Shown here: positions 21,637 to 61,704 of the stretch, piece by piece
How positions within the stretch are numbered: the first letter of the stretch is position 1
Layout of the letters: each line of letters begins with the position of its first letter
Made by a program: the position numbers and the translations under genes
Notes under the pieces: generated by a model
Databases searched by the model: none
The model's input: the letters and a program-made list of their open reading frames with translations, nothing else
What the model was told of the DNA's origin: nothing
Assembly (NCBI GenBank): GCA_964587835.1
Contig: CAZPMN010000004.1
Location: 14,351-78,350 of the forward strand
Direction: 5' to 3'
DNA length: 64,000 bases
From: an uncultured bacterium
Lineage (GTDB): Bacteria; Auribacterota; Erginobacteria; Erginobacterales; Erginobacteraceae

Positions 21637-21953
21637 TCATCATAACTGGAAATATCTCCCATCCGGACCGAAAGATCCGCACATCTTATCCCCAGGTTAT
21701 CCACACGGGCATAATTCCAGGTCATATTGCCCTCTGCCGCAAACAGTAACGCCACTGGACCCCTTATCTGCCCCGTATGCCTAAGTTTACATAAGGAACC
21801 TTATCATAACCAGTGTCAGATTAGGAAATATGGAAAATTCCGGGCTTCTGGGTTTGCTGGAAACTGCGGGCGTTCAGACTGGATTGAGACTGGGGGTACT
21901 TGCCGGCGGTGGCCAGGCTGAAGACGTATTGCGGGGAGCAAAAAATAGGTTGC

Positions 21954-22036
21954 GCGTCATTGCGAGGAGCGCAGCGACGAAGCAATCTCAACTTGCTGAC
22001 CAGGAAGAGATTGCTTCGCTGCGCTCGCAATGACGT
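21954..22036. repeat. Head-to-head pair of the GAGATTGCTTCG...CGCAATGAC palindromic repeat element forming an ~83-nt imperfect hairpin between convergent genes; likely terminator of the minus-strand kinase/HTH operon
   Basis: gcgtcattgcgaggagcgcagcgacgaagcaatctc - 17 nt - gagattgcttcgctgcgctcgcaatgacgtc. An A-run precedes it on the plus strand, which is a U-run after the hairpin on the minus transcript. Confidence 0.6.
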
Positions 22037-22068
22037 CGTTCGGAAATACAAACAATATGCTGGCCTGA

Positions 22069-40480: not shown

Positions 40481-42190
40481 TCACCCCGGCGAGTTCGGGG
40501 AGAGAAGTATCCGCCATCCCGGATCAAGGGGGGAAGCCCGCCGACGGTAGACGGTGACGGTCAGGCCGAGATCGGGAAAGTCCCGGCTGCGCCAGGTCTC
40601 AACCAACCCCCGCCGGGCCGCTTCCTCCACGATTTTTCGGGGCCGGTCTACGCGATCTCCCAGCATACTCTGGTTGGAAAGGGTGAGATAGGGCGAGTCG
40701 GGATGTATCCGGAGGACGGCGAAAAAGGCGCAGCGGGGATCTAGATTCCCCACAATTGTTCGCCGTTGGACCAGCCCATGCCATTGCCAGAGGTGGGCTG
40801 AGGCGCAGTTGAGCTGGAAGAGGACCGCCAGGGGATACCCGGGTTTGGTGTTGTTCCAGATAAAATCAAGCACATCCTCCACACTATTCGATCCCAAGCG
40901 GTCGCCGTGCTTCGGCGAGAGGATGTTCTTCGGCTGGTAGATGAAATCCGGGTAGCGGGCCAGGCCGAAAAAGGCTTTCCGGGGCACCCTCTTCGGGGCC
41001 GGTAGGTTGAGCGAGCCCAGGGCGTTGTTTCCGATGATCCGGACGTATTCCGGGAGCCGGGGGAGATCCCCGGCGAGAAGGATCAACCAAACCAGGACGG
41101 TCAGGCGCACGGTCCGGCGATGCAACTGCCGTACCAGGTCGGCCAGGAAGAGGGCGGTCAGGAGGAAGAGGGCCGCCACTGCGGGGGTGGCGATGAACCG
41201 TTCCTGGAGGTTGGGGCTGCGGGCGATCGGAAGCAGGCTTCCCCAGAAGAGGAGGAAGAGAAGCCGGACTCTGAGGTCCCGCCATCTCCGGGCGGCCCAA
41301 ATCAGTCCGCCCAGGTAGGCGGGGAAGAGCCAGGGGGAGAAGGAGTAGGCGGTGAGCAGGGCCCGGGGATAATAGAGAACCCGGTCGCTCATCTCCAGGT
41401 GGAGGAAATCCCATCCGCTGGTCTCGCTTATCCGGTAGAGGATGATGTTGATCTTATCCCCGGCATTTCCTCCGGCCAGCCAGAGAAGCCAGACGCCGGC
41501 GAATGCCGCCGCAAGGATCCAGATCCGATTTAATTCCGCCCGGCATCGCTCGCGGTCCTTCTTTGACAATATGATGCTCAGCCAGAATATGACCAGGCTG
41601 AATCCGAAGAAGATGGCGTAGATGTACTTGGTGAAGTAGAGCAGGGAAAGAAAGACCCCGGCGACGATATACCATATCGGCCGCTGCCCGTCCCGGGCGG
41701 TCAGGTAGGCCAGCAGGGCCGCCAGGGTCAGGAACGTCCCCAGAGATTCGGCCATCGCCGTCCCCGCCAGGTAGCAGAAGAGCGGAGAAAAAACCAGGAG
41801 CCCGGCCGCGATCATCCCGGCCCCTGCACGACCGAAAGAGGCTGCCTTCCGGCCCGTCAGGTAGATGAGGAAGACCGCCCCGACGTTCATCACCAGGCTC
41901 ATAAACCGGGCGGCCTGGTAGGTATATCCCCCGATCAGCAGGAAGACCGAGGAAACCCAGTAATGGAAAAAGGGCCAGTAGATCTGCCGGTTGGTCAGGT
42001 TCCAGAAACCGGCGAAATCTAACTCACTGAGCTGCTCGGCCATCGCCAGGCTGATCAGGGAACGGTGCGCCTCGTCCCAGCCGAACGGCCCCTGGGGCCG
42101 AATCAGGTATAGGTAAATAAAAACTCCCTGCAGAATAATCGCAGATAAAACCGCTGTAATGGCTATGCGGCTGCTGAAGCCCGTTTTCAT
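40481..42190 (-). CDS. GT-C fold polytopic membrane glycosyltransferase (GT39/GT83, ArnT/PMT-like)
   Basis: 12+ TMs; GWDEAHRSL (DE motif) in the first loop; overall ArnT/PMT-like topology. Confidence 0.65.
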   Translation of the reverse strand: MKTGFSSRIAITAVLSAIILQGVFIYLYLIRPQGPFGWDEAHRSLISLAMAEQLSELDFAGFWNLTNRQIYWPFFHYWVSSVFLLIGGYTYQAARFMSLVMNVGAVFLIYLTGRKAASFGRAGAGMIAAGLLVFSPLFCYLAGTAMAESLGTFLTLAALLAYLTARDGQRPIWYIVAGVFLSLLYFTKYIYAIFFGFSLVIFWLSIILSKKDRERCRAELNRIWILAAAFAGVWLLWLAGGNAGDKINIILYRISETSGWDFLHLEMSDRVLYYPRALLTAYSFSPWLFPAYLGGLIWAARRWRDLRVRLLFLLFWGSLLPIARSPNLQERFIATPAVAALFLLTALFLADLVRQLHRRTVRLTVLVWLILLAGDLPRLPEYVRIIGNNALGSLNLPAPKRVPRKAFFGLARYPDFIYQPKNILSPKHGDRLGSNSVEDVLDFIWNNTKPGYPLAVLFQLNCASAHLWQWHGLVQRRTIVGNLDPRCAFFAVLRIHPDSPYLTLSNQSMLGDRVDRPRKIVEEAARRGLVETWRSRDFPDLGLTVTVYRRRASPLDPGWRILLSPNSPG

Positions 42191-43275
42191 TTGCCTTGAG
42201 TCTCAATGAATTCACTGAATGGGACGAATGACTTGCCCTTAACCAAGGGATAATAATGGCGCATAAAATCTCGGTTAACAGCGGTCAAGCACTCGCCGCC
42301 ATACTGGTTGAACCAGTTCAGTTTCAGCGCCCGGTTCCGAATCTTCTCGAGGGGCTCTTTGAAGATATTGCCGAAGACGATATGCATAAAGGGGCACCCG
42401 CAGACATCCCCGTAAGGGGTAAAGTAGAGTACTTCCTTGAGGGCGGGACAGCCCCAGCCCCCATAGTTATTATCAAGGTCTCGGACCACGAATGGGTAGT
42501 TCTTCCGCAGGCGGTAGTAATAATCGCGGTCCTCCTGAGAGAGCATAACTTCCGGGTTCCCGGTCCAGTAACCGAGCGGTCGGGCATAGATGGTCTCCAG
42601 CATAATCCTGTTCCGATGTGAGTAGTCTAAAATCTTCTTCAGTCCCTCCGAGTAAAGATTATCCTTGTGCACCGTGGTGTTGATAACAATCTTGATCTTA
42701 TGCTTCCGGCAGAGCTCGATGTCCTCCATTATTTTGGCGTAGCTACCCGGGTGGTTGCGGAACCGGTCGTGTTCTTCGGCGATGCCGCTGTCCACGCTGA
42801 AGTAGAGGGTATCTATGCCTGTTGAGGCCAGCTTTTCAATGGTTGGTTCGTCGAGGAGGGAGCCGTTGGTTGTAATGATAATGTGGTTTCTCCGCGGGCG
42901 GAAAGCCTCAATGATATCGAAGATGTCTTTACGGATGAACGGTTCCCCACCCTGGAGAGAGAAGACCACTGCCCCGAGTCTTTCCATCTCACGGCAGACC
43001 CTTCGGTAGTCGTCAATCGTCATCACCCGGCGCGGTATGGGACTCTTCAGATTTTCCGCGTAACAATGCGAACAACGGAAGTTGCAGGCATATGTGATAG
43101 CGAAATCAGCCCCCCGAAGGTTGAATTTTTTGATCCCAAGAAGCCTCCAGAATTTGGCCCGGACCAGGTTCCGGACCAATCGGAGCAGGAACATCGGTTT
43201 TCTCCAGTGGAACCCGTATTTGACAATGACGTAAAGACGAAAATAGACTCTTTTAAAAATGTTCATATCTTTCAA
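42187..43275 (-). CDS. Radical SAM protein with C-terminal SPASM/twitch-type Cys cluster
   Basis: ITYACNFRCSHCYA (CX3CX2C), FSLQGGEPFIRKD, C-terminal GGWGCPALKEVLYFTPYGDVCGCPF. Start TTG at 43275 or ATG at 43266. Confidence 0.75.
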   Translation of the reverse strand: MKDMNIFKRVYFRLYVIVKYGFHWRKPMFLLRLVRNLVRAKFWRLLGIKKFNLRGADFAITYACNFRCSHCYAENLKSPIPRRVMTIDDYRRVCREMERLGAVVFSLQGGEPFIRKDIFDIIEAFRPRRNHIIITTNGSLLDEPTIEKLASTGIDTLYFSVDSGIAEEHDRFRNHPGSYAKIMEDIELCRKHKIKIVINTTVHKDNLYSEGLKKILDYSHRNRIMLETIYARPLGYWTGNPEVMLSQEDRDYYYRLRKNYPFVVRDLDNNYGGWGCPALKEVLYFTPYGDVCGCPFMHIVFGNIFKEPLEKIRNRALKLNWFNQYGGECLTAVNRDFMRHYYPLVKGKSFVPFSEFIETQGK

Positions 43276-43290
43276 TCCAATCGTTCATGG

Positions 43291-44328
43291 TTAGTGTTTC
43301 TGGACAAATCCGACTAGCGTCCCAGCGACGCGGCTGATCTCCCCTGCTCCGTAGCCGATGTGGGTCAGGCAGATAGCCAGGAATACATGAAGTACCAAAC
43401 GCGGTCTACCAGCCCGGAATGCGGACCAGATACTTTGGGCCAGAACCAAGGGAAAGTATAATAAGGGTGCAAAAAAATATGCTCGAAAAAAGCCAAGGCC
43501 GGAGAGAACCAAGGCAATCACCAATAGCGCTGGTAACGCGTAGGCCAGGTTCAGCATTTCCGGATGCCGGACCAGAAGAGTCCCCCGGGCGCGGCCGTAT
43601 CTCAACATATTTCTCCACCAGCTCTTTGGAGAAGGGCGATACTTGTGAAATACCATTGGCCGGGGATCGTAGAAAAGCCTCCGACCGAACCTCAGGATCC
43701 GATAGGAGAACTCAGCATCCTCCCCCTCGCTCTTCAGCTCTTCATCGAAGTAGCCGAGCTCCTTGAAAAGAGCTTTTTCGTAGATAACGTTAAGCGTCGG
43801 CAGATCGACCACGTTTTTCTTCCGCTTAAGGTTTTTCCCACTCACCCTCCCCCCGCTGGCTAGATAGGTATTGAGTCCAATCTTCACCGCTATGGCGAAG
43901 TCACCGGCCTCCTCCGGGATCAATGCCGGGCCGCCGACAGCAGCGACCTGATTATCCGCAGCGGTCGCTTCCCGCCAAGCCAGGACCAAGTTTGCGATCC
44001 ATTCCGGGGGGACCACGCAGTCGGCGTCGGTAAAGGCGACCAGTCCGAACCGGGCTTGCCGAACTCCGGTATTCCGGGCCGCCGCGGTGCCCCTCTTCGG
44101 CTCCCGGACGTACCGAATCCGCCGATCCCGCTTTGCATAGGATTCAATGATGGGAATTGTCCCGTCGGTGGAGTCTCCGTCCACCACTAGGACCTCATAG
44201 TCCCCGGCCCGGTAGCTCTGGCCCAGGAGGGATTCCAGGCAGGCGGCGATGTTCTCCCTCTCGTTGTAGCTGACCACGATGATGGAGACATTCATTCCGG
44301 ACTGGTTGTCGGCACCGGGGTGATTCAT
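43291..44328 (-). CDS. Family 2 glycosyltransferase with C-terminal TM region
   Basis: VSIIVVSYNERENI...YEVLVVDGDSTDGT...FTDADCVV are GT2 DxD/ED motifs. ATGA overlap with the upstream gene. Confidence 0.8.
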   Translation of the reverse strand: MNHPGADNQSGMNVSIIVVSYNERENIAACLESLLGQSYRAGDYEVLVVDGDSTDGTIPIIESYAKRDRRIRYVREPKRGTAAARNTGVRQARFGLVAFTDADCVVPPEWIANLVLAWREATAADNQVAAVGGPALIPEEAGDFAIAVKIGLNTYLASGGRVSGKNLKRKKNVVDLPTLNVIYEKALFKELGYFDEELKSEGEDAEFSYRILRFGRRLFYDPRPMVFHKYRPSPKSWWRNMLRYGRARGTLLVRHPEMLNLAYALPALLVIALVLSGLGFFRAYFFAPLLYFPLVLAQSIWSAFRAGRPRLVLHVFLAICLTHIGYGAGEISRVAGTLVGFVQKH

Positions 44329-50358: not shown

Positions 50359-51548
50359 CAGTCTACCTCGTCTTCCCGGAAGATAAAGGAGTCGGCTTCA
50401 AGCCGGGAGCGGATTGAACCCGGTCGGGAGATAAAGCGCTTGCCGGTTTCATCCCGGCGGACCAGGCGGCGGGTCTCCGGGTCAAACCGGATCTGGGGGT
50501 TTTGATAGACCGCATGGTAAGGAATTTTTTCCCCGGGAAGGTAACGGTTCCAGGTGGAGGATTTGATGCCCCGGGGATAGAGGAAATACTGGATCCGGCA
50601 GTCGAAGGGCCACATCGGCGTCGAGTAGAAATTATACCGGACCGTCTTCGGGATGACCTCCCGGCAGAGATCGACGAAGCCGTAGAAATTTCCCAGGGCC
50701 GGGAAAGTCTTCTCTCCCGGCGGCGGCTTGACATAAGAATCGTGGATTCCTTTTATGGTCTGGTATTGGCTGTAGCTCTCCCGGACATCGTAGAGCACCC
50801 AGACCGCAAGCAGAATTAGCGCGGTCCGCAGGACGATCCGGCTCCGCCCCTTGCCCCGGGACCGAATATAGAAGATCGCCGCTGCCAGGAATACCGCTAT
50901 CGCCAGGATATTCAGCCAGCTGACGAATGACTTGCCGAAAATTCTCGGGCCGTTCAGCGAATTGATCGACCCCAGGTTCAACCTCCGGGGCAGGAGAAAT
51001 TCCCGCCACTGGTCGGCAAGGTAAAGTGCAAGGGAAAACGGCCTGATCTCTATGGAATCGATCTCCACCCAGCCGGGGCGGCCCCCGAAGGCCAGTCCCA
51101 GCCTCCCGGCCTCTCCGGCCGGAGAGATCCAGAAAGTATGAAAGTTGGCGTCGAGGGGAGGTTGAACAGGATCCGAAACCGGAACCATCAAGCCATCCCG
51201 GTCCTGTCCGAGGATCAGGAAGTTGCGGGGAGACTGGATCCGGAGGCGTACCCTCAGATAAGCTTTCGCCTCGGTCGGTGGCGCCGGATCCGCCGGCGGG
51301 TAGAGCTGGAACCTTTCTCCTCCCAGCACCTGAAGCCCTGCCGGAACCGGGCCTCCGGCCTCGATCCCCTCCCCTCTCCAGCCGGCGAAATCCCGGCCGG
51401 TTTCGAATATCCGGGGAGCGGACTCCCCGGCTGGGGCGGACGTTAAGGGGAAGATCAGCAGTCCGACCCCGGCGAGGACAGCCAGGGCCGATTGGTTTCC
51501 CAGTGTCAATTCTTTCAAGACAAACCGCCCGATTACGATTGTGGACAA
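50358..51548 (-). CDS. Hypothetical membrane-anchored/secreted protein (TTG start)
   Basis: N-terminal hydrophobic segment, internal TM; no recognisable domain. Confidence 0.45.
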   Translation of the reverse strand: MSTIVIGRFVLKELTLGNQSALAVLAGVGLLIFPLTSAPAGESAPRIFETGRDFAGWRGEGIEAGGPVPAGLQVLGGERFQLYPPADPAPPTEAKAYLRVRLRIQSPRNFLILGQDRDGLMVPVSDPVQPPLDANFHTFWISPAGEAGRLGLAFGGRPGWVEIDSIEIRPFSLALYLADQWREFLLPRRLNLGSINSLNGPRIFGKSFVSWLNILAIAVFLAAAIFYIRSRGKGRSRIVLRTALILLAVWVLYDVRESYSQYQTIKGIHDSYVKPPPGEKTFPALGNFYGFVDLCREVIPKTVRYNFYSTPMWPFDCRIQYFLYPRGIKSSTWNRYLPGEKIPYHAVYQNPQIRFDPETRRLVRRDETGKRFISRPGSIRSRLEADSFIFREDEVD

Positions 51549-51573
51549 AATGGCTTTTGCTTCTCAACAGGTT

Positions 51574-51619
51574 GAGATTGCTTCGGCCCCTCCGCTTCGC
51601 TTCGGGCCCTCGCAATGAC
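51574..51619. repeat. Copy B of the GAGATTGCTTCG...CTCGCAATGAC palindromic repeat element (46 nt), 26 nt upstream of the start of gene 50358..51548
   Basis: gagattgcttcggcccctccgcttcgcttcgggccctcgcaatgac read directly. Confidence 0.6.
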
Positions 51620-51829
51620 CAAAAATTGGCAAAATTGACAATTGCCGGACAGCCTCACCAGCCCGTGGATATGTCCGTAAATCATCCATTTATTGTTTAG
51701 GATAAATCGCGGAAGTCGGGTTAACCCAGGTTACACTTTGCGTTCCGGGCAGAAATGTAACAGTTTTTCTGGGGGCCCGCAAACAGTAAGACCGTGCCTT
51801 TGCCGGTCCGACTTCGGATGAAGATGAAT

Positions 51830-53860
51830 TCAGGGAACAGTCAGCGCGGTGGGAAGGTAGAGGATCTGATGCTGGTCAAGCAGCTGATCGGGTGAGATCC
51901 CCCAGATCCGGGGGAGGTAGTTGAGGGCCATTGCGGTGTCGAAGTGGCGGTAAAAAGCAGCCGATGCCTCCGGGGGAAGCCTCAGCCCCTGTTTCCGGCT
52001 CAGGCCGAGCAGGTACAGGTCCCAGGTACCGGGGGCCGGGTCTTCCGGGAAGAGGATGTTGGCCCGGATCCGGACCGTTTCCCCTTCCCGCCAGCGGTTG
52101 GTCGGGTACACCCGGTAGGGAGCCATCAGGAACTGCTGGATCACCCGGTCGGGGGCGTTTCGGTTGACCAAGCGGACGACAAAGAGGATATCGTCCAGAG
52201 GTGTCTGTGCCGCCCGAAGATCGGCTGAGAATTCCAGGACTGGGAAGCCGAGCTCCTCCCGCGTTAGCGCCTGGGCCAGGCCGAACTCCAGGCCCGGGAA
52301 CCCCGCCGCCGGCCGGAAGTTCCCCTCCCCCGCCGGGACCGTTTGGACCACCCCGGGGGCGAAGCTCTCCCCCCGCCGGAAGAGGGTCAGGGAGTTGACC
52401 GTCGCCGCCAGCTCCCACTTCCCCTCCCGGAGAAAGGCGTTGACCGCCCGGTCTCCGCCAGGGGTGTAGAAGTCGTAGAAGGTCAGCCAGTCGTTGAAGT
52501 CGGCCAGGATATATTCCGCCCTCTCCCCCATCACCTTCACGTGGCCGGCCCAGTCCGGACGCCGCGAGGATGCATAAAGGTGGTAGAAGAAGAACATCTG
52601 CGGGCGGCTGGAGAGCTTCGGCGTGAACTCGAAGGTGGCCGCCACCGGGGCCGGAGGGGGAATAGTTTCCAACATCGTCTCCCGGACAGCGTCCTCGGGG
52701 GCAAACCGCCAGCCCGGGAACTGCTCTCCCAGCCGGGGGACGGGGCCGAAACTCCAGGCCGTGAACAGGGAGATCAGGACAATCGCCGCCGCCAGGTGCG
52801 GGCCCCTCCCCCGCAACGACCGCCACTTGAGCAGGTTCCCCAGGCCGAGGGCGGCGGAGGCAAAGACCATCGGGGTGATGATCGAGGAGTACTGGTAACG
52901 GATGGAGAAGTGGCTGAACCGCTCCGAGAGCAGCCCCTCGGCCGTCGAGATCAGCACCATCAGGAGGCCGGAGGGCGAGAAGAGGGGCAGCAGGCCCACC
53001 GGGGAGATGAGCTGCCAGAGATAGGTGAGCTTGGGACCGGTCAGGACACCCCCCAGGACGTATCCTGGCCGGGTGGCCAGGGTGAGGAGGATCCGCCCCG
53101 GGGAGTCCCCCAGCCAGCCGAAGAACGACTCCACCATCTGCGGACTCTCCACCGGGGCCGGAACCGCCAGACTGGGGATCAAACCCTCGCAGAGATAGAA
53201 CCAGGCCGGGCCGGCCAGGAGCGGCACCAGGGCCCAGCGGTAGAGGGACCAGAAACCTTCCCGGCCTTCCCGGCGCACGGTGATCAGGGCGTAGACCCCG
53301 AGGGCGAAGACGGGGATGGCGACATCCTGTCGCACCGAGAGGGCCGCCGCCACGAAAGCCAGGTACCACCCCCATCGCCTGCCCTGGAGAAAGTAAAATG
53401 CATAGAGCAGCAGGGGCGTGGCGAAGGCGATCGGGTGGAACTCAAAGAGGTTGACGTGCTGGAGGGCGGGATAAGCCAGGTAGGCGAAGGTCAGCGCCAG
53501 ACCCGGGAGAGCTCCGGTCCGCCTCCGGGCGATCAGAAAGACCGCCCCGGCCCCGGAGGCCAGGGCGACGGACTGGAGGACGAGGAGCAGGGGCGGACCG
53601 GGCCAGACCAGGTAGAGCGGCAGGAGGGGCAGCAGGATAAACCACTTGTGCCCGCTGAGCAGGGCGGCCGTCCCGTACTCCGGCGAGACCAGCACCCCGT
53701 GGCCGGCGTTGAAGACGGTCTGGTTGATCGCCGCCAGGTCCATATCGTGGAAGGAGAAGGACCGGTAGCGCACCAAGGCGATTGCCGAAAATACGGCGGC
53801 ATAGACCGCTATCAGCGTCAGAATCGGCAGGATAACCTTCCAATTACGTTTAATTTTCAC
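51830..53860 (-). CDS. DUF2079-like large polytopic membrane protein
   Basis: N-terminal YRSFSFHDMDLAAINQTVFNAGHG resembles the DUF2079 signature; many TMs. Confidence 0.55.
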   Translation of the reverse strand: MKIKRNWKVILPILTLIAVYAAVFSAIALVRYRSFSFHDMDLAAINQTVFNAGHGVLVSPEYGTAALLSGHKWFILLPLLPLYLVWPGPPLLLVLQSVALASGAGAVFLIARRRTGALPGLALTFAYLAYPALQHVNLFEFHPIAFATPLLLYAFYFLQGRRWGWYLAFVAAALSVRQDVAIPVFALGVYALITVRREGREGFWSLYRWALVPLLAGPAWFYLCEGLIPSLAVPAPVESPQMVESFFGWLGDSPGRILLTLATRPGYVLGGVLTGPKLTYLWQLISPVGLLPLFSPSGLLMVLISTAEGLLSERFSHFSIRYQYSSIITPMVFASAALGLGNLLKWRSLRGRGPHLAAAIVLISLFTAWSFGPVPRLGEQFPGWRFAPEDAVRETMLETIPPPAPVAATFEFTPKLSSRPQMFFFYHLYASSRRPDWAGHVKVMGERAEYILADFNDWLTFYDFYTPGGDRAVNAFLREGKWELAATVNSLTLFRRGESFAPGVVQTVPAGEGNFRPAAGFPGLEFGLAQALTREELGFPVLEFSADLRAAQTPLDDILFVVRLVNRNAPDRVIQQFLMAPYRVYPTNRWREGETVRIRANILFPEDPAPGTWDLYLLGLSRKQGLRLPPEASAAFYRHFDTAMALNYLPRIWGISPDQLLDQHQILYLPTALTVP

Positions 53861-54672
53861 TGGGAATTATATCCCGGGAGTCTTCGGGGGGGATCCCCGG
53901 AGAGCGCGGGTTTTTGTGCTATCAATAAAGATTCCCAGGGCTTGCTATAAATATTTATGAATCCGGTTTCCGACATCATCCTTCTTATCTTAATCGGGTT
54001 GCTTAACCACACTGCATCAGAGTCATCAGAGATGTATGTTTCTTCGTCGATTTGGGGATCAAGATAAAGAGGCATCTTCGATCTGGTCAGCCAGGAAAAC
54101 ATCTCTCTGAGAGCGGTTCCGGGCATTACCTTGAAGATTAGTTGGGCGTAGAGAAGATAAATAAAACCTTTCGGTTTAAGTATCCGGTATATCTGTTGAA
54201 TAAGCTGTTCCGGGTAAATTGTGTGTTCAATGAAAAATCTTGATATGACCAGATCCGCAAATTCTGGAGGTAATTGCGGATTGATTGCATCCATTCTGCG
54301 GAAATCAATATTGTTATGGTCTGGGGAGATGAGTCGCCCGGCATATTCACCAAGATCGATTGCCCAGATCCGTTTATGCGGAAGATGGGTCGATATGGCG
54401 ACAGGCAGATCACCGGCTCCGCAGCCGAGATCAACGATGTTATTTGCTTCCCGGCAGAGTTCCAGGAAAGATTTACGCCGGCACATATCTTGCCATATAT
54501 CTCGGGATTCAAGGGTGGAAAAATAACGATCAGCCTGATGGGATTGATAATATTCGCGCACCTTTTGATCTATCGCCTTCGGCTGATTACCGATATACCG
54601 CCGCAATCTTCTTCCCCGCATAGCCTGGAGTAACCGGACGGCCGGGTTGGGTGTCTTTTTCGGGGTAGTCAT
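53857..54672 (-). CDS. Class I SAM-dependent methyltransferase
   Basis: VDLGCGAGDLPVAIS (motif I), ILKPKGFIYL (motif III-like). Confidence 0.7.
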   Translation of the reverse strand: MTTPKKTPNPAVRLLQAMRGRRLRRYIGNQPKAIDQKVREYYQSHQADRYFSTLESRDIWQDMCRRKSFLELCREANNIVDLGCGAGDLPVAISTHLPHKRIWAIDLGEYAGRLISPDHNNIDFRRMDAINPQLPPEFADLVISRFFIEHTIYPEQLIQQIYRILKPKGFIYLLYAQLIFKVMPGTALREMFSWLTRSKMPLYLDPQIDEETYISDDSDAVWLSNPIKIRRMMSETGFINIYSKPWESLLIAQKPALSGDPPRRLPGYNSQ

Positions 54673-54723
54673 TGCTTCTGAATCAGTGGCGCTGGATTAA
54701 ATTATCCAAGGGGGATGAAGCGA

Positions 54724-55446
54724 TTAATTCCCATCCTCCTTGGTTGGATGATAGAGGACGAAACGGTAAAACAAGGATTTAGGCAGAAAAATATTCCCCA
54801 ACCCATCAATGAGCAGACCGACCGGAATGGTTATCAGCCAGATCGGGAGATATCGCAAGGGAGTCTTCAGGACCAGGGGACTGAAATATAGCAACCCCAG
54901 ATGAAGGAGGAATCTTCCCGGCCCTTCCCGCCAGTTTCCAATTCCCAGTTGGCTGGCCGAGGTCCGCTTTCTTCGGAAGGTGAAAAAAAACTCCAGATGC
55001 CCCAGAAACCCCTTTCTCCTCTTTTCCGCGAGGTCAAATCCGTGCTGCCTCATCAGTTCTTCTAACTCGTTCTCTCCGAAGACTCGGACGTGGTGAATCT
55101 CCAAGGGATAGGAGGGGCGGAGGCGGGCCAGCCATTCTTCCGACTTCCAATAGGGAACCTCGGCGATCACTTCTCCCCCGGGTTTGAGACAACGGCGGAT
55201 CTCTCCCAGGGCAGCATCTAGGTCGTCAATATGCTCGAGCACGTCTCGGGCTTCTATCGCGTCAAAAACCCCGTCTCTGAACCCTAACCGCTCACCGCTC
55301 ATAGCCAGGAAAATCAATTTGGGATAGCGCCGGGCGGCGATGTCGAGATCGAGGAGGGAGATATCGACCCCGAATACAATTTTTCTCCGGGAAAGAAGCG
55401 AGGTGTTGTAGCCCTGCCCGCAGCCCAGTTCGAGAACCTTTTTCAT
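54724..55446 (-). CDS. Class I SAM-dependent methyltransferase with C-terminal TM segment
   Basis: VLELGCGQGYNTSLL (motif I), VFDAIEARDVLEHI, CLKPGGEV. Confidence 0.7.
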   Translation of the reverse strand: MKKVLELGCGQGYNTSLLSRRKIVFGVDISLLDLDIAARRYPKLIFLAMSGERLGFRDGVFDAIEARDVLEHIDDLDAALGEIRRCLKPGGEVIAEVPYWKSEEWLARLRPSYPLEIHHVRVFGENELEELMRQHGFDLAEKRRKGFLGHLEFFFTFRRKRTSASQLGIGNWREGPGRFLLHLGLLYFSPLVLKTPLRYLPIWLITIPVGLLIDGLGNIFLPKSLFYRFVLYHPTKEDGN

Positions 55447-55489
55447 CCTCGCAATGACAAGGCGCTGTATTTTGAGTTCCGGGTAAAAT

Positions 55490-56467
55490 TCAGCCGCGGA
55501 ATTTCAGGGACTGCCGGGTCCTCAGGTAGGCCCGCCATTTCCCGACTACCAGCCGGGTCCGCTCCAGATATTCCCGGTCACTGAGTACTCTCTGGTTTTG
55601 AACCCTGGTGTGCTCCCGGGCGATATCTCTCCAGGAGAGGAGATTATCCAGCCAGGCTCTACAGTAAGCTTCCCGGACGGTCTGGAGCTGGGCGGCCAGA
55701 AGCAGATAACCGACCTCAAGGCAATTAACCAGGAGGTAGATTGGGATGATCAGGAAGAGAGTGGGATAGGAATAATTCTTCAAAACACTCCGTATATTGT
55801 TTCTTTCCCCGAGGTATCTCCTTTGAATGGTCCAGGTCGGGACTCCTCCCCCGGTCAGATGGTAAAAGCGGCAGCCGTCGGCCGGATAAACCTCCTCTCC
55901 GAGCAGTAAGGCCCGCCAGCAGAGATCGATCTCCTCGTGGAAGATAAACATCTTCTCGTCAAAGCCGCCCAGCCGGGCGAATAGCTTGCTGGAGATGATG
56001 AAGGCACAGCCGGGAGCCGTGCAGGACTTGCCCTCCCGGAAGGAACACCCATAGCCGAGAAAGTCAAAACCGTCGCGCTGGCCGATAAAAAGCTGCCCGT
56101 CATAGCTATACTCCCGAGCGGCGATGATCCCGGCCAGGGGGTTGTCCGCGATGAACCTGGAGAGTTCCCGGACGAAGTCCTGCGCCAGCCTGGCGTCGTT
56201 GTTCAGGAAGACCAGGTACCCCCCCTGGGCGAGTTTCGCGGCCGCGTTATTGGCCCCGGTGTAGCCGAGGTTCTCTTCCAGGGCCAGCACCTCCACCTCG
56301 GGATAGTTCTCCCGGACAAACTCCTTCGATCCGTCGGAGGAGTTGTTGTCGGCCAGGATCACCTCATAGTTGTCGGTGTTCTGGCTCCGGATGGATTGAA
56401 AACAGGGGCCGAGAAACTCCTTCCCGTTCCAGTTGAGAACGATGATGCTGATCAGGGGATCTTTCAT
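55490..56467 (-). CDS. Family 2 glycosyltransferase
   Basis: ISIIVLNWNGKEFL...YEVILADNNSSDGS...FLNNDARL. ATG 56467 with RBS GGATGGAGAG; the track ORF reads on through the upstream repeat element. Confidence 0.8.
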   Translation of the reverse strand: MKDPLISIIVLNWNGKEFLGPCFQSIRSQNTDNYEVILADNNSSDGSKEFVRENYPEVEVLALEENLGYTGANNAAAKLAQGGYLVFLNNDARLAQDFVRELSRFIADNPLAGIIAAREYSYDGQLFIGQRDGFDFLGYGCSFREGKSCTAPGCAFIISSKLFARLGGFDEKMFIFHEEIDLCWRALLLGEEVYPADGCRFYHLTGGGVPTWTIQRRYLGERNNIRSVLKNYSYPTLFLIIPIYLLVNCLEVGYLLLAAQLQTVREAYCRAWLDNLLSWRDIAREHTRVQNQRVLSDREYLERTRLVVGKWRAYLRTRQSLKFRG

Positions 56468-56568
56468 GGACTCTCCATCCTCCGTCGCCGGAAAACTATA
56501 GCAATCCCGCCCGTTTTGGGATAGTTTTTCCCTGAATTTGATAGCTGTTTCGATCCAGGCAGCGAGTT

Positions 56569-56615
56569 GAGATTGCTTCGTCGGCCAGAAAGCTTTCGGG
56601 CCTCCTCGCAATGAC
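56569..56615. repeat. Copy C of the GAGATTGCTTCG...CTCGCAATGAC palindromic repeat element in the divergent promoter region between the GT2 gene (minus) and the rSAM gene (plus)
   Basis: gagattgcttcgtcggccagaaagctttcgggcctcctcgcaatgac read directly. A partial terminus-like gattcgcaatgatacc recurs at ~56663. Confidence 0.6.
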
Positions 56616-56672
56616 GTGCAACCTATTTTATACTATCCTCAGTGACATTCTTTCCGGACACGATGATTCGCA

Positions 56673-57704
56673 ATGATACCGCTCTATAAGACCTGGCTGA
56701 TCCAGATCGAGATCACCAACGCCTGCACCTTCCAGTGCGCCAACTGCACCCGGTACGTCGGCCATCACCGCCAGCCCTACTTTATGGGGCTGAAAGAGAT
56801 CGAGCGGGCGGTCGACTCCCTGGAAGGCTTCGGGGGCGGGATCGGGATTATGGGTGGCGAGCCCACCCTCCACCCGGAGTTTCCCCGGATCTGCGAACTG
56901 CTCCGGAAGAAGGTCCCCCCGGAGAAATGCGGGATCTGGACCTCGGGCTACCGGTGGAATGAATACCGGGACCTGATCAAGGAGACCTTCAAATACGCCG
57001 TCAGCTTCAACGACCACAGCGATCCCAAGCAGAAGCACCAACCGGTCTTCGTTGCCATCGACGAGGTGATTCGGGACAAGGATCTGATGTGGGACCTGAT
57101 CGATCACTGCTGGGTCCAGGAGACCTGGTCTCCCTCGATCAACCCGAAGGGGGCCTTCTTCTGCGAGGTGGCGGCGGCGATGGATCTCTTTCTCGATGGT
57201 CCCGGCGGTTACCCGGTGGAGAAAGGCTGGTGGATCCGGGACCCGGAACACTTCCGCGACCAGGTTGAGCGTTACTGTCGCCGGTGCGGGGCGGCCCTGC
57301 CGATGCAGTGCGCCTCCAACCGGGATGCCGCCGACCTGATCTCTCCGGGCAATCTCGAGTTGTTTAAGAAGCACGGTTCGCCCAAGGTTCTCCAGGGCCG
57401 GTACCGGCTATTTTCCGAGCCGATGGACGACCGGGTCCGGGAGTTGCAGAAGGAGTGGGCTCCCCAGAATTACCTGGGGGTCCGGACCGGTCGGATGATC
57501 AAGAAGATCCTGCCTCTCCGGCACATCCTGCTCTTTCTCGGGGAATTCAAGCGGAAGAAGGATCTCAAACTGGACGAACTCTGGCTCCTCAACCGGGGAA
57601 CCTATAACACCCGGCGGGTCTGGGTCCGGATCAAGCGGAAGCTATTCGAGACCAAGCCGCCTCCGGAGATGTTTCCCCCGGTCCCCGTTCGGAAGGCCAA
57701 GTGA
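56673..57704 (+). CDS. Radical SAM domain protein
   Basis: IQIEITNACTFQCANCTRY (CX3CX2C), GIMGGEPTLHPEF. Confidence 0.7.
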   Translation: MIPLYKTWLIQIEITNACTFQCANCTRYVGHHRQPYFMGLKEIERAVDSLEGFGGGIGIMGGEPTLHPEFPRICELLRKKVPPEKCGIWTSGYRWNEYRDLIKETFKYAVSFNDHSDPKQKHQPVFVAIDEVIRDKDLMWDLIDHCWVQETWSPSINPKGAFFCEVAAAMDLFLDGPGGYPVEKGWWIRDPEHFRDQVERYCRRCGAALPMQCASNRDAADLISPGNLELFKKHGSPKVLQGRYRLFSEPMDDRVRELQKEWAPQNYLGVRTGRMIKKILPLRHILLFLGEFKRKKDLKLDELWLLNRGTYNTRRVWVRIKRKLFETKPPPEMFPPVPVRKAK

Positions 57705-58687
57705 AACCCCTGGTCTCCGCGATCATCCCCGCCCACGGCCGCGTTTCCCCGGTCCTGGCCTGCCTGAATTCCCTCTCCGCCTCTGATTACGACCGTCTGG
57801 AGATCATCGTCGTGGACGACTGCTCCCCGGAGAACATCTCGGCCCGGGTGGCGGCGGAATTCCCCTCGGTCCGGACGGTGCGGCTGCCGGAGAACCGGGG
57901 GGCCGCCGGGGCGAGGAACGAGGGGATGCGCCACGCCCGGGGAGAGTACTTCTTCTTTGTCGACAGCGATGTCCTGGTCGAAAGCAACACCCTGGGACTC
58001 CTGGTCGAGGCCGCCGCCCGCGAGCCGGCTTGCGGTGCAATCGGTCCGGTGGTCCGCTACCGCTCCAGTCGTCGGACCTACTTCGTCCGGACCCGGATCG
58101 ACCTGGATACCGGCCGGACCTATTACGACCGGGAGCTTCCCCGGGAGGGCGGGGTGCTGGAGACGCACCATATCCCCTGCCTCTGGCTGGTCGCCCGGAA
58201 GGTGGTCGAGAAGGTAGGGATAATGGATCCGATCTACCGGACTTACTACGAGGAATCGGACTGGCAGGGCCGGATGGGCCGGGCGGGGTTCCGGAACCTG
58301 GTCTGTCTCTCCGCCGCCGCCGATCACGATGTCCCGGACAGCCGGGGCATCGCCGGGATCCTCGCCGGGATGTCCGCGGGGGATCCGGACAAGGCGGTTT
58401 ACCACCTCTACCACCTGGCAAGAAACCGGACCATCTTTATGAAGAAGTTCGCCGGGCGGCTCCAGTACCTCCGGTTCCTCTTTCTCTACAACCAGCTCTT
58501 CTTCCTCTATTACTCCTTCAGGCTGATCTCCCGGTCCGGGCCGGCCTTTGCCGGCGCCTACCTCCGCGGTTTCCTCCGCGGGCTGTTCGATGCCCGCCGG
58601 GTCGCCCGGATCGTCAAGGGGACGGAAGACCGGGAGAGGCTTCCGCTTCCGCCCCTTTCCGGATCAAGTCCCCCCTCCTCCGTCTGA
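57701..58687 (+). CDS. Family 2 glycosyltransferase
   Basis: VSAIIPAHGR...LEIIVVDDCSPEN...FFFVDSDVLV. GTG overlaps the upstream TGA. Confidence 0.8.
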   Translation: MKPLVSAIIPAHGRVSPVLACLNSLSASDYDRLEIIVVDDCSPENISARVAAEFPSVRTVRLPENRGAAGARNEGMRHARGEYFFFVDSDVLVESNTLGLLVEAAAREPACGAIGPVVRYRSSRRTYFVRTRIDLDTGRTYYDRELPREGGVLETHHIPCLWLVARKVVEKVGIMDPIYRTYYEESDWQGRMGRAGFRNLVCLSAAADHDVPDSRGIAGILAGMSAGDPDKAVYHLYHLARNRTIFMKKFAGRLQYLRFLFLYNQLFFLYYSFRLISRSGPAFAGAYLRGFLRGLFDARRVARIVKGTEDRERLPLPPLSGSSPPSSV

Positions 58688-59368
58688 ACCGTTCCGGGCA
58701 GCGCCCGCCTCCACAAAGTAGGTTGACCAGCCGCGCTTCCGCCGGTATTCCCGACCCCGCCCTGCCTCCAGGAATTCCTTCCCCGGAACCTCGCGGCGCG
58801 CCAGCCACTTGCAGGGGTAGAAGAGGAGCATACTTAAGACCTCGAAGAATCCGCCGGCGGACCAGACCCGGAGGGGCTGAAAGCCGCTTCGGGCCAGTAT
58901 ATTCAGGAGTTTATCGCGGCGGTAATGACGGTGGCCCGCGTACCAGGCGGGGTCGGTCAGGGTTGACCGGAGATCGAATTTGGGCGTCGAGAGCAGGAGC
59001 CGACCGTCGGGCTTGAGAACCCGCCTGACCTCCCGGAGGGATTCGCCGACCGAATCCGTCGCCAGGTGTTCGAGAACCTCCCACATCACCACCAGATCGA
59101 ACCATTCACCTCGGAAGGGCAGCGCGGGAAGCCGGCCCCGGAGGAATTCGGCGCCGGGCACCTCGCGGGCGGCGGCAGCCAGACTTTTCTGGTCCCGGTC
59201 GAGCCCCACCGCCCGACGGCAGCCTACCTTCACCACCCCCGCCTCGAACCAGCCGTTTCCGCAGCCGATGTCAAGGACTGCCTGTTTCGTCAGATCTCCC
59301 GCCGCCGCCACCGATGCCGTGTGCCTTCCCGTCCAGCGGGCGGCGATTGATTCGGAATATCTTTTCAT
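58664..59368 (-). CDS. Class I SAM-dependent methyltransferase
   Basis: VLDIGCGNGWF (motif I), DLVVMWEVLEHL, VLKPDGRLLL. ATGA overlap with the upstream GT2. Confidence 0.7.
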   Translation of the reverse strand: MKRYSESIAARWTGRHTASVAAAGDLTKQAVLDIGCGNGWFEAGVVKVGCRRAVGLDRDQKSLAAAAREVPGAEFLRGRLPALPFRGEWFDLVVMWEVLEHLATDSVGESLREVRRVLKPDGRLLLSTPKFDLRSTLTDPAWYAGHRHYRRDKLLNILARSGFQPLRVWSAGGFFEVLSMLLFYPCKWLARREVPGKEFLEAGRGREYRRKRGWSTYFVEAGAARNGSDGGGGT

Positions 59369-60195
59369 CTCTGTCCGGAGATTGGGGAAGCGAGATAAAC
59401 CAGGCCGACCGCCAGTCTTAGAAAGATCATCCCGCCGGCCAGAAGCGGATGACAGATCAGCTTCTTCCACTTCCTCTCTTCCAGGAATACGCCGAGGTAG
59501 CGATAGTAGAGGCCGAACTGTTTCTTGATCTCGGGGTCTTCTCTCCCCCACTTGGCGATATATTCGGCGAAACCCCGGCTATAGTAACGTTTCTTCGCCA
59601 GATAATGGCGGAGGCAGAACAGGCCCTCGTTGTGGAAGATCACCGCATCGGCGAGTCCTGCCTTTCCGCCGGCCCGGAGCCGGCGGTCAAAGTCCCAGTC
59701 TTCAGGGCCGTTGAGATTTTCGTCGAAACCGCCGATCTTTAGGGCCGCCGCCCGGGGGAAGAACCGGGCGGCATCAATGCAGGTCCCGTCGTAAAAACTT
59801 CGCTCAAAGTCACGGACCTTGATCCAGAACCCCTCCCCGATAATGCGTTCCGGGATATAAAGGCCGGCCAGCCCCTCGCGACTGGACTTCTCCAGGCACT
59901 TCCCGATCAGTCCCTCCCCCAGGACCATATCAGCATCGAGGTAGAGGATGTACCTTCCCCGGGCCTGGGCGATCCCGAAGTTCCGCTGGGCCGAGCGCTC
60001 GGGACCGTGGTCGAAGACCAAATGGGTGAACCGGGAGGCGATCTCCTTGGTCCGATCGGAGGAATCGTTATCAACCACGATGATCTCCAGTTTCTCCCGG
60101 GGGTAGTCCTGGCGGAGAACCGACTCCAGGCAGGAGGCGATGTGCTTCTCCTCGTTCCGGGTGGTAACAACTATCGAGACGTCGATCAGTGCCAT
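59365..60195 (-). CDS. Family 2 glycosyltransferase
   Basis: VSIVVTTRNEEKHI...LEIIVVDNDSSDRT...ILYLDADMVL. Confidence 0.8.
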   Translation of the reverse strand: MALIDVSIVVTTRNEEKHIASCLESVLRQDYPREKLEIIVVDNDSSDRTKEIASRFTHLVFDHGPERSAQRNFGIAQARGRYILYLDADMVLGEGLIGKCLEKSSREGLAGLYIPERIIGEGFWIKVRDFERSFYDGTCIDAARFFPRAAALKIGGFDENLNGPEDWDFDRRLRAGGKAGLADAVIFHNEGLFCLRHYLAKKRYYSRGFAEYIAKWGREDPEIKKQFGLYYRYLGVFLEERKWKKLICHPLLAGGMIFLRLAVGLVYLASPISGQR

Positions 60196-60247
60196 AAATA
60201 GACGATAGCTTCCCTTTCCTGATGTGGCACTCCAACGGAGTGCCACA

Positions 60248-61603
60248 TCATATCAGTACGTTTTTTTCCTCTGACTCTGACTGGGGGTTTATCTCCATCC
60301 CTAGCCCTGTCGGACGCTGGAAGAGGCTCGGGGTGAGGAAGAGAGTTCCCAGGAAAGAGAGGCAGCCGAAGATGTTGAGGATGAGGAGAACCTCCCGCAG
60401 ACCGGGATGCCAGAGATAGATCGCCGCCGCCTGACCCACCGCGGCGATCAGGAGAAACTTGATGAACCGGGTGGAGCCGACCGAGAGGTTGTAGAAAATC
60501 TCCAACCAGAGCAGAGAATAGAAACTCATTGCCAGGGCGAAGAGGCCGACCAGGGAGACAATCTCGGAGTCGGTCTTTCCGGTCAGGATTCCCAAAACCA
60601 GACTCGGAGCCAGCCAGCAGACCGCGGTCGCTGAACCCGAGAGCAGCGCGGCTAGTTTCAAACCCCGGTGGAAGAGGTGGATGCTGGAGGAGTTGATAGC
60701 CTTGAGCGAGGCGGCCTTGGGAAAAACCACCAGGGCCACCGCGGCCGGGAGAAAGAGGATAATCTTCCCCACCATCTGGGCCACCGAGTAGTAGCCCGCT
60801 TCCTGCGGGGAGAAGAAGGCCTTGACCAGGGTAATGTCTATGTTGGTTAGGATGGCGAAAGAGAGCAAGGCCAGCATCGTGGGGATGATATATCGGTAGA
60901 TCGGTCCCATTGTCGGGGAGGGCAGCACCGATGGCAAGGTGCGGCGGCGGAAATATCCCCGGATCAGCCGGACCCCGATCAGGAGCATCAGGGCCGGGGC
61001 GAATAAATAGCCGGAGAGTGCCCCCGCCACTCCGGCTCCGGCCAGAACCAATCCGATTCCGAGAACAAGCTTGGTCAGGGCGTAGGAGACATTGAGGAGG
61101 GCCAGGGGGCTGAACTTCTGGGCCCCCTGGAGAAAGGCCGCCGGGAGGCAGGCGGGCAGGTGGACCGCCACTACCAGGCCCAGGATGTAGAAGAGGCTGA
61201 CGGCGTCAATCTGCTGGGCCCGGGCCAGGGGGCCGGCGGCGATAAAAAAGACCAGCAGGAGTCCTCCCGCTCCGATTCCCAGGTCGCGGCCGGCTCGTTT
61301 CACGGTTGCCGCCGCCATGGCCAGCCTTCCCCGGGCGATCTCCTCGGCGAAGAACCTGGCCAGGGCCGGCTGGATGGCGGCGGTCAGCTGGCCGAAGAAG
61401 ACGGTGAAGACCACCAGGGAGTTGAGGACGCCGTAGTTCTCCACCTCGAGGAGACGGACCATCAGGAGGTGGAAGATGAGGTTGATCACCCCGGCCAGTT
61501 GGGTCCCGGCCATCGTGATCCCGGCGTGGCGGATGAAGTCGTCTCTTAAAATTTTTTTTCCAAAAATTTTAAGATCGAGGATTCTGTTCTTGAAATCTTC
61601 CAT
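60248..61603 (-). CDS. wzx: Polysaccharide biosynthesis protein / Wzx-like flippase (MOP superfamily)
   Basis: About 12-14 TMs, typical PST-family length and architecture. ATG 61603 chosen. Confidence 0.7.
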   Translation of the reverse strand: MEDFKNRILDLKIFGKKILRDDFIRHAGITMAGTQLAGVINLIFHLLMVRLLEVENYGVLNSLVVFTVFFGQLTAAIQPALARFFAEEIARGRLAMAAATVKRAGRDLGIGAGGLLLVFFIAAGPLARAQQIDAVSLFYILGLVVAVHLPACLPAAFLQGAQKFSPLALLNVSYALTKLVLGIGLVLAGAGVAGALSGYLFAPALMLLIGVRLIRGYFRRRTLPSVLPSPTMGPIYRYIIPTMLALLSFAILTNIDITLVKAFFSPQEAGYYSVAQMVGKIILFLPAAVALVVFPKAASLKAINSSSIHLFHRGLKLAALLSGSATAVCWLAPSLVLGILTGKTDSEIVSLVGLFALAMSFYSLLWLEIFYNLSVGSTRFIKFLLIAAVGQAAAIYLWHPGLREVLLILNIFGCLSFLGTLFLTPSLFQRPTGLGMEINPQSESEEKNVLI

Positions 61604-61608
61604 CGATC

Positions 61609-61699
61609 GAGATTGCTTCCTGCCTGCCGGCAAGCGGGCGTCGCCCTTTTGTCGGGGCACGGCATGCCGTGCCCCGACATCGGGCCGGATCGCAATGAC
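61609..61699. repeat. Copy D of the GAGATTGCTTCC...CGCAATGAC palindromic repeat element (91 nt) filling the spacer between the B12-rSAM stop and the flippase start; contains a perfect 28-nt palindrome
   Basis: gagattgcttcc...gtcggggcacggcatgccgtgccccgac...cgcaatgac; perfect palindrome at 61651-61678. Confidence 0.6.
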
Positions 61700-61704
61700 A
61701 GTGT

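Follow-up and report, generated by a model that had tools for sequence, protein, structure and literature searches.

The stretch of DNA analysed here, a window of 64 kb, carries a family of short palindromic repeats dispersed between its genes. Scanning it with the strict pattern GAGATTGCTTC-N(8-38)-CGCAATGAC gave four exact matches, 21956-21989 on the minus strand and 22007-22034, 51574-51619 and 56569-56615 on the plus strand, and no match was obtained in 100 dinucleotide-preserving shuffles of the window. A fifth copy, 61609-61699 (plus strand with respect to the pattern), has both termini around a core of 71 nt. The interspersed repeat with conserved termini proposed in the initial annotation is thus real, and all four loci listed there were borne out, but an extra half copy, CCTCGCAATGAC at 55447-55458, had been missed. 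In four of the five full units both termini are unchanged, with a GTC tag and a C at the 3' side. The strand that defines the element is the one opposite to the pattern, and reads (C/T)GTC-ATTGC-GAG…variable hairpin…CGAA-GCAAT-CTC. The strands given for the units below refer to this GTCAT strand, which is equivalent to the strand of the Neisseria repeat NTS that is cleaved by Ssn nucleases.

The first locus is a head-to-head doublet. Its left half, unit 1a (21956-21989, plus strand), has the plus-strand sequence GTCATTGCGAGGAGCGCAGCGACGAAGCAATCTC, and its right half, unit 1b (22007-22034, minus strand), is of the minimal 28-nt form and reads GTCATTGCGAGCGCAGCGAAGCAATCTC on the minus strand; both are exact pattern matches. 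Between them lies an unstranded spacer of 17 nt, AACTTGCTGACCAGGAA (21990-22006), at the place where gene-bearing elements have an ssn gene. Solo unit 2 (51574-51619, minus strand, 46 nt), with an apical GGCCC/GGGCC stem, is found between two minus-strand genes, and solo unit 3 (56569-56615, minus strand, 47 nt) between a divergent GT2 gene (start 56467, minus) and a radical-SAM gene (start 56673, plus); these two also match the pattern exactly. Solo unit 4 (61609-61699, minus strand, 91 nt) has intact termini with one change on each inner side (TTCC and GATCGC), a branched, GC-rich insert of 71 nt at the position of the loop, and fills the gap between the stop of a B12-radical-SAM gene (61705) and the ATG of a flippase gene (61603). 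The half unit (55447-55458, minus strand), GTCATTGCGAGG on the minus strand, lacks the inner half and directly adjoins the ATG of a methyltransferase gene, 54724-55446 on the minus strand.

The genes flanking the units encode a histidine kinase, a small HTH protein, a DUF2079 protein, two methyltransferases, GT2 glycosyltransferases, radical-SAM enzymes and a polysaccharide flippase. The repeats had been described as strictly intergenic, and this holds for all units when realistic start codons are used, ATG 56467 for the GT2 gene, in agreement with an independent gene call of 325 aa, and ATG 61603 for the flippase gene. A GIY-YIG profile search of the ORFs in the 64-kb window found no ssn gene. 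All copies in the window are gene-less derivatives: the solo units, the half unit and the doublet with its spacer of 17 nt.

Folding compared with shuffles showed that the doublet, taken as 21950-22040 (91 nt), is one long hairpin of -54.8 kcal/mol (z = -8.1), which agrees with the earlier description of the first locus as two inverted copies in a single hairpin. Solo unit 4 folds with -53.6 kcal/mol (z = -3.8), and the plus-strand folds of the solo units, with z = -1.9 and +0.7, were no better than those of shuffles. In the predicted fold of the plus strand, every window unit has at its base a stem of 5 bp (ATTGC/GCAAT), which is followed by an internal loop and topped by an apical hairpin. 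The termini had been called partly complementary, so that each element would form a long hairpin; there is indeed a hairpin per unit, but the self-complementary part of the termini is only ATTGC/GCAAT, 5 bp, and is followed by the internal loop and the variable apical hairpin. On the defining strand a unit can be divided into an unpaired (C/T)GTC tag, the 5-bp stem, a small internal loop, an apical hairpin that is free in both sequence and length, and an unpaired C(TC) tail.

The conservation of these parts was estimated from 367 copies at loci that had been selected by the partner protein described below, and not by the repeat. Their consensus is (T)GTCATTGCGAG(G)…(C)GAAGCAATC(TC), and the flanks further out are without conservation. 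In these copies the unpaired GTC 5' of the palindrome is conserved to 97% (G), 97% (T) and 95% (C), and no window unit lacks it. The C just 3' of the palindrome (GCAAT-C) is conserved to 97% and is present in all five full window units. The first position of the tag is a T in 64%, the stem starts with AT, and the tail is CTC. The size of a unit ranges from 28 to more than 90 nt and that of the core from 5 to more than 70 nt, the 28-nt minimal unit being the commonest form among 155 copies.

In genome copies that were selected with the pattern, the termini are invariant by construction of the search, and the cores vary widely. A perfect stem of at least 4 bp was found in 44% of the cores of at least 12 nt, as compared to 20% after shuffling, and the 131 cores with such a stem have 89 distinct stem arms, which implies that the structure and not the sequence is conserved in the cores. 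The apical loops are also asymmetric: C(GNA)G triloops on the GTCAT strand account for 78 of 171, and the mirror class for 3. The d(GCGAAGC) hairpin is a classic, very stable DNA mini-hairpin. Judging from the sequences, the triloop asymmetry points to a function of the GTCAT strand as DNA and fits a function in single-stranded form. An RNA UNCG tetraloop on the GAGATTGC strand was considered and rejected; the minimal units cannot close such a loop, and the DNA triloops explain the asymmetry.

A search of a collection of species-representative genomes with the strict pattern found at least 120 loci beyond the window, with 155 copies in them, in more than 20 bacterial lineages. Among the matches listed are Chloroflexota, Desulfobacterota, Alpha- and Gammaproteobacteria, Bacteroidota and Patescibacteria, as well as Omnitrophota, Nitrospirota, Planctomycetota, Firmicutes such as Sporomusa, Cyanobacteria and Atribacterota. 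The pattern was also found in viral contigs, at least 120 loci comprising 1 Mb. None of the comparison loci collected overlaps the window. Among 457 copies, close pairs in the arrangement that also brackets ssn genes (F>R) were found 62 times, the opposite arrangement (R>F) 15 times and tandem pairs 23 times. Since F>R is the commonest, the doublet of the window represents the typical gene-less, REPIN-like form. At most 200 of the 457 copies are in close pairs, and solo units are the majority.

All-against-all clustering of the ORFs within 1 kb of the 155 copies revealed a single small and specific family, a GIY-YIG protein of about 95 aa that was present at three loci. The other clusters were common transporter, regulator and biosynthetic families, and no recurrent transposase or IS-type gene was found near the copies. 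At all three loci the GIY-YIG gene lies exactly between two inverted units, 5'-GTCATTGCGAG…CGAAGCAATCTC, gene, GAGATTGCTTCG…CTCGCAATGAC-3', and in some cases its stop codon overlaps the downstream unit. One of the three loci has sister motifs, GTCATTCTGAG…GAAGAATCTC and GAGATCCTTCG…CTCAGGATGAC. The doublet of the window has the same arrangement as this gene-bearing element, with the 17-nt spacer replacing the gene. Near motif-selected copies such genes are rare, 3 in 823 kb of genome loci and none in the 120 motif-selected viral loci (1 Mb).

The association was also tested in reverse, with 80 metagenome loci taken from more than 558 relatives of 50-72% identity, where the protein was the sole criterion of selection. 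Where enough flank was available, a forward unit was found within 200 nt upstream of the gene in 58 of 79 loci and a reverse unit within 150 nt downstream in 49 of 73. At least one unit was present in 64 of 72 loci, and both in 39 of 72, the background of the motif elsewhere in these loci being 0.31 per kb. De novo counting of 9-mers at the protein-selected loci gave the same picture: TCATTGCGA is present in 58 of the windows upstream of the gene and in 57 of those downstream.

The bracketed proteins are 96-109 aa long and have a single Pfam GIY-YIG domain at residues 4-78 (E about 1e-18). There are at least 8000 homolog clusters, and the best 120 listed are mostly 95-98 aa. This resembles the Ssn proteins, single-domain GIY-YIG enzymes of about 94 aa (CDD cd10448), which bind hairpin repeats and, acting on ssDNA only, cut one strand at a distance of a few nt upstream from the motif (Chenal et al., Nat Commun 2025, PMC11893778). 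In the alignment Y9, Y20 and E67 are invariant, with the same spacings of 11 and 47 residues as Y6, Y17 and E64 of SsnA, the residues mutated by Chenal et al. 2025 (PMC11893778). We collected 120 viral contigs with the exact NTS and ran a profile built from the motif-bracketed proteins on their ORFs. Three NTS-adjacent GIY-YIG ORFs scored 100-105 bits. One of these contigs (L295) has CGTCATTCCCGCGAAGGCGGGAATCCAG, which is the exact published NTS, followed by ssn and an inverted NTS, so the gene is bracketed on both sides. Its protein is 43% identical (E = 5e-25) to a motif-bracketed one (L024), and the homology to Ssn was judged against such NTS-flanked proteins. No Ssn structure was found in a PDB search, where the best match was the UPF0213 protein BH0048 with 35 bits, and no specific model in an NCBIfam search with the associated protein. 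By sequence comparison, the associated protein is an Ssn-type GIY-YIG nuclease.

The repeat itself can be compared with the targets of these enzymes. The Neisseria target NTS is CGTCATTCCCGCGMAVGCGGGAATCYRG, a subset of dRS3, and "Ssn-related motifs" (SRMs) flank ssn genes across phyla (PMC11893778). Like these, the window element is an oriented, intergenic, multi-copy hairpin repeat. Its palindrome starts with ATT, ends with AAT and is preceded by an unpaired GTC and followed by a C, and at gene-bearing loci elsewhere two inverted copies bracket a single-domain GIY-YIG gene of about 95 aa. It is a short (20-50 nt), imperfect hairpin-forming palindrome as SRMs are, with some units above 50 nt, such as 61609-61699. 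In NTS, the three nt 5' of the palindrome control cleavage and the C just 3' controls binding; the identity of the loop does not matter, and the loop can be extended (PMC11893778). The nucleotides found critical by mutagenesis are thus the most conserved ones here (GTC 95-97%, 3' C 97%), and the variable cores match the dispensable and extendable loop.

There are also differences. The stem is ATTGC/GCAAT, 5 bp, as compared to ATTCCCGCG/CGCGGGAAT in NTS, and the short loop is replaced by an internal loop plus an apical hairpin that can have any sequence and length, giving units of 28 to more than 90 nt in total. Changes in the palindrome abolish cleavage by the Neisseria enzyme (PMC11893778), and a cognate enzyme would therefore be required for the window subtype. 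The published degenerate SRM pattern, as transcribed HGTCWYN(0-2)YYVSBRHN(0-5)WNVSBRGN(0-2)RNCYNB, matches NTS test sequences but no ATTGCGAG or ATTCTGAG unit, and its sole match in the window is an unrelated site, 50369-50399. This pattern is an operational search tool and not a conceptual definition. Since it has no match in the window subtype, membership in the SRM class rests on the anatomy of the unit and on the associated protein.

The same class had been described before from the side of the repeats. The CGTC-tagged REP superfamily is defined by a tag of CGTC or TGTC, A-T pairs at the first two positions of the stem, a tail of 3 nt and the predominance of one head-to-head dimer type. 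Its family CGTC-1 is dRS3, and no transposase or other enzyme dedicated to the superfamily emerged (Di Nocera et al., BMC Genomics 2013, PMC3733652). The window element has the unpaired terminal tag, the A-T positions, the 3-nt unpaired tail (CTC), the predominance of one head-to-head dimer type (62 against 15) and the occurrence in several phyla in common with it. However, families CGTC-1 to CGTC-4 have contiguous stems of 8-9 bp, loops of 4-5 nt and a CCA tail, whereas the window element has a 5-bp stem with an internal loop, a variable core and a CTC tail, and consequently it would have to be placed in the superfamily as a family of its own. Neither the text and supplements of Di Nocera 2013 (PMC3733652) nor the remaining literature, as far as it could be searched (the supplementary data of Chenal et al. 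not included), contain the exact sequence; a search with the terminal sequences gave unrelated primers only. The repeat had been presented as novel, without a matching family. This has to be modified, as the kind is known, both as CGTC-tagged REP (PMC3733652) and as SRM/NTS (PMC11893778); the repeats of the window are ordinary representatives of this class and do not make up a new kind. Only the sequence subtype ATTGCGAG, with its ATTGC stem and variable core, appears to be undescribed.

The most probable explanation, in which we have considerable confidence, is that we are dealing with Ssn-related motifs, a class that went under the name of CGTC-tagged REPs before and has Neisseria dRS3/NTS as its best-known member; cleavage of ssDNA by Ssn is the proposed mechanism. 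The assignment as SRM is based on the anatomy of the unit, on the 43% identity between the partner proteins and the NTS-flanked ones, and on the shared Tyr/Tyr/Glu spacing. The GTCAT strand would fold when it becomes single-stranded, during replication, transformation, conjugation or repair, and a single-domain GIY-YIG endonuclease of the Ssn family, about 95 aa, would bind the fold and nick the ssDNA a few nt 5' of GTC; it would act neither on the complementary strand nor on dsDNA or RNA. The gene of the nuclease lies between two inverted units, GTCAT…AATCTC, ssn, GAGATT…ATGAC, and the gene-less units of the window relate to this ssn element as REPs and REPINs do to a RAYT gene. The Ssn system modulates transformation in N. 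meningitidis (PMC11893778). For the subtype of the window we infer ssDNA-specific binding, the position of cleavage and a possible effect on recombination or transformation from the published SsnA biochemistry.

The window copies may be orphans. One can go further and see them as relics, of the SRM class by descent but in a genome without a cognate Ssn, where they would be passive hairpins, recombination substrates or spacers, or have no role at all. The absence of a GIY-YIG ORF from the window agrees with this, as do the copy that is reduced to a half unit, the one with a 71-nt insert, the rarity of ssn genes near copies in genomes and viruses, and the fact that an SsnA homolog is present in 81% of the genomes with more than 200 SRMs, so that some repeat-rich genomes are without one (PMC11893778). 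On the other hand, the exact termini of four of the five full units suggest a recent origin or an ongoing constraint, and the absence of the gene covers 64 kb of the genome only. We therefore find it unlikely that the copies are merely such relics. It is very unlikely that the units act at the level of RNA, as intrinsic terminators, mRNA-stabilising hairpins or small RNAs conserved for their RNA fold. They do fold as RNA too, they are placed between genes of operons, and there is a weak preference for the GTCAT strand to be the sense strand where the neighbouring genes are codirectional, 52 against 30. But no Rfam family was found at the gathering score, a permissive search (E <= 1) gave chance hairpin matches only, a terminator and promoter scan at locus 1 found nothing, and the plus-strand folds of the solo units were, as described above, no better than shuffles. 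Furthermore, a generic hairpin role does not explain termini that are conserved across lineages and tied to one protein gene, and SsnA does not bind RNA (PMC11893778). A secondary effect of the units on transcripts is possible. Among other known elements, attC sites, CRISPR repeats and ribozymes do not fit in consensus, spacing and size, and gave no Rfam match.

The likeness to REP systems deserves a closer comparison, as REP/MITE-like behaviour had been pointed out from the start and the likeness to REPs and REPINs is the right analogy: solo units and head-to-head doublets are found away from a nuclease gene that is bracketed by inverted units. In REP/REPIN systems with RAYT (the REPtron) and in IS200/IS605 elements (Nunvar 2010; Bertels & Rainey 2011), the gene of a nuclease recognising ssDNA hairpins is likewise flanked by inverted repeats, with many dispersed solo units and hairpin-forming doublets in intergenic DNA, and such enzymes are the paradigm for repeats of this kind. 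The architecture could therefore suggest that the repeats are mobilised by a Y1 HUH transposase, as in a classical REP/RAYT or IS200/IS605-type system, but we consider this extremely improbable. The nuclease here is of the GIY-YIG type and not Y1 HUH, the tag is (C/T)GTC and not GTAG, and the termini are near-identical across more than 20 bacterial lineages and not species-specific. No transposase family recurs beside the 155 copies, where the GIY-YIG family was the only small and specific one, and no RAYT flanked by CGTC repeats was found by Di Nocera 2013 (PMC3733652). The chance that the repeats are MITEs that go back to an insertion sequence of the DDE type, or a hot-spot that arose through targeting by an IS110/IS1111-type element, seems just as slight. 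The doublet, 21956-22034, does resemble a miniature element with inverted ends, and IS110-family recombinases are known to target REP-like palindromes, dRS3 among them. Against this, IS-type genes are not recurrent near the copies, the single unit is already the repeat, with fewer than half of the copies in close pairs, and no flanking duplication is evident in alignments of the unit flanks. The GIY-YIG homing endonucleases (I-TevI, Seg proteins) and UPF0213/YhbQ have the catalytic fold and a selfish-element-like gene setting in common with the partner protein. However, this protein has no DNA-binding domain or linker, its genes do not lie in introns, there is little similarity (13-35 bits as compared to 100-105 bits for the NTS-flanked proteins), and the substrate of the Ssn family is ssDNA, not dsDNA (PMC11893778).

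Identification of the repeats as Ssn-related motifs gives a name and a testable partner protein to a repeat that recurs in many uncultured bacteria. The published SRM pattern misses at least the ATTGCGAG subtype and its ATTCTGAG and ATCCTGAG sisters, which means that the prevalence of SRMs and Ssn is probably underestimated. With its 5-bp stem and an apical hairpin that can be exchanged freely, the subtype exemplifies in nature the 'modular loop' that was engineered by the Ssn authors, and it would give a new recognition sequence for ssDNA-cutting tools. What remains of interest is the wide spread over lineages, the escape from the published search pattern, and how the units multiply.

Regarding the last of these, the IS-like and REP/RAYT-like architecture was pointed out by Chenal et al., who did not demonstrate mobility (PMC11893778). 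A possible but rather doubtful reading is that the unit together with the GIY-YIG gene of about 95 aa is an autonomous mobile element working through ssDNA hairpins, i.e. an IS-like class with a GIY-YIG nuclease as its 'transposase', which would move between more than 20 lineages, possibly via phage DNA, and seed REP/REPIN-like solo units and doublets. If so, the near-identical GTCATTGCGAG-type termini across lineages would reflect recent horizontal spread and not ancient conservation. An exact Ssn protein (P0025) found on 24 contigs has the same gene layout in all 10 places shown, the annotated ones being between ABC-transporter genes, and this constancy gives no support for recent transposition. 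The radical-SAM gene beside solo unit 3 allowed a local comparison. An 84%-identical ortholog (L322) has a shorter intergenic region without the unit, and a 70%-identical ortholog has an ssn gene directly upstream, bracketed by the sister motif GTCATCCTGAG…CGAAGGATCTG. These presence/absence differences have no clean boundaries; they suggest turnover and are not proof of it. The nearest named relative of the radical-SAM gene of the window is from a Lentisphaerae MAG, at 61% identity.

The apical loops of the units differ strongly between the two strands. When all copies in the comparison loci L001-L200 were counted, 78 of 171 apical triloops on the GTCAT strand, the defining strand of the unit, were of the C(GNA)G type, as compared to 3 for the mirror class, and either GCGAAGC or GCGCAGC is present in the minimal unit. 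In solo units located between codirectional genes the GTCAT strand was the sense strand in 52 cases and the antisense strand in 30 (L001-L120 and L325-L444), a weak bias towards the sense strand in a tally that builds on crude gene calls. The solo units of the window have the GTCAT strand oriented as in the majority, that is, sense.

Homologous ssn genes, encoding the small GIY-YIG nuclease, were found to be bracketed by the sister families GTCATTCTGAG…CGAAGAATCTC and GTCATCCTGAG…CGAAGGATCTG, which share the form GTCAYYNNGAG…CGAAG…ATC (L060 3930-4470, L324 5270-5900, and L147, L169, L186 and L191). Neither of these two sister motifs occurs in the 64-kb window. At L092 and L115, ends resembling the Neisseria motif NTS (GCGGGAATGAC and ACGGGAATGAC) immediately adjoin units of the ATTGCGAG type, in their 5' flanks, which implies that several subtypes of the Ssn-related motif can share one genome, and even touch.

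Between the upstream unit and the start codon of ssn there is a second conserved element, approximately GAGATTCCTCGCTTCGCTCGGAACAGGCTCCGCAATCTC, often followed by a TATAAT-like box (L121, L135, L160-L163 and L178). It may represent a regulatory or promoter module, or else a further family of repeats. In a related genome, the radical-SAM gene that corresponds to 56673-57704 of the window (an ortholog with 70% identity) has immediately upstream of it a gene for a 119-aa GIY-YIG protein, accompanied by sister motifs (L324 5364-5723). Relative to the radical-SAM gene, this is the position that the solo unit 56569-56615 (-) has in the window. The gene of P0025, one exact 95-aa Ssn protein, has an identical layout in ten metagenome contigs (L445-L454), and in those that are annotated it is flanked by the gene of a BPD_transp_2 permease on one side and that of a Peripla_BP_6 binding protein on the other. 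It is a stably resident copy, and not a jumping one. Dense arrays of 4-6 units inside 1-3 kb were observed at L054 (Caldatribacterium, 2.9 kb) and at L006, L068 and L059 (Chloroflexus), and the cores are nearly identical inside each array; these arrays look like local amplification.

Four of the six units in the window are found within about 10 kb (51500-61800), in a gene cluster of surface-polysaccharide type with DUF2079, methyltransferases, GT2s, radical-SAM enzymes and a flippase. In this single window, the arrangement recalls the reported clustering of NTS near surface-structure genes in Neisseria. Inside this cluster the GC content falls to 0.515 at 54-56 kb. The GC content also goes down to 0.524 at 42001-44000, as compared to about 0.60-0.64 elsewhere.

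The half unit at 55447-55458 (-), GTCATTGCGAGG, leads directly into the start codon (ATG) of the methyltransferase gene, 54724-55446. Its inner half appears to have been replaced or truncated where this gene begins. The unit at 61609-61699 has intact termini and a 71-nt branched insert at the position of the loop, within which GTCGGGGCACGGC and GCCGTGCCCCGAC form a perfect stem of 13 bp. A stop codon (61705) and the following ATG (61603) are separated by just this unit.
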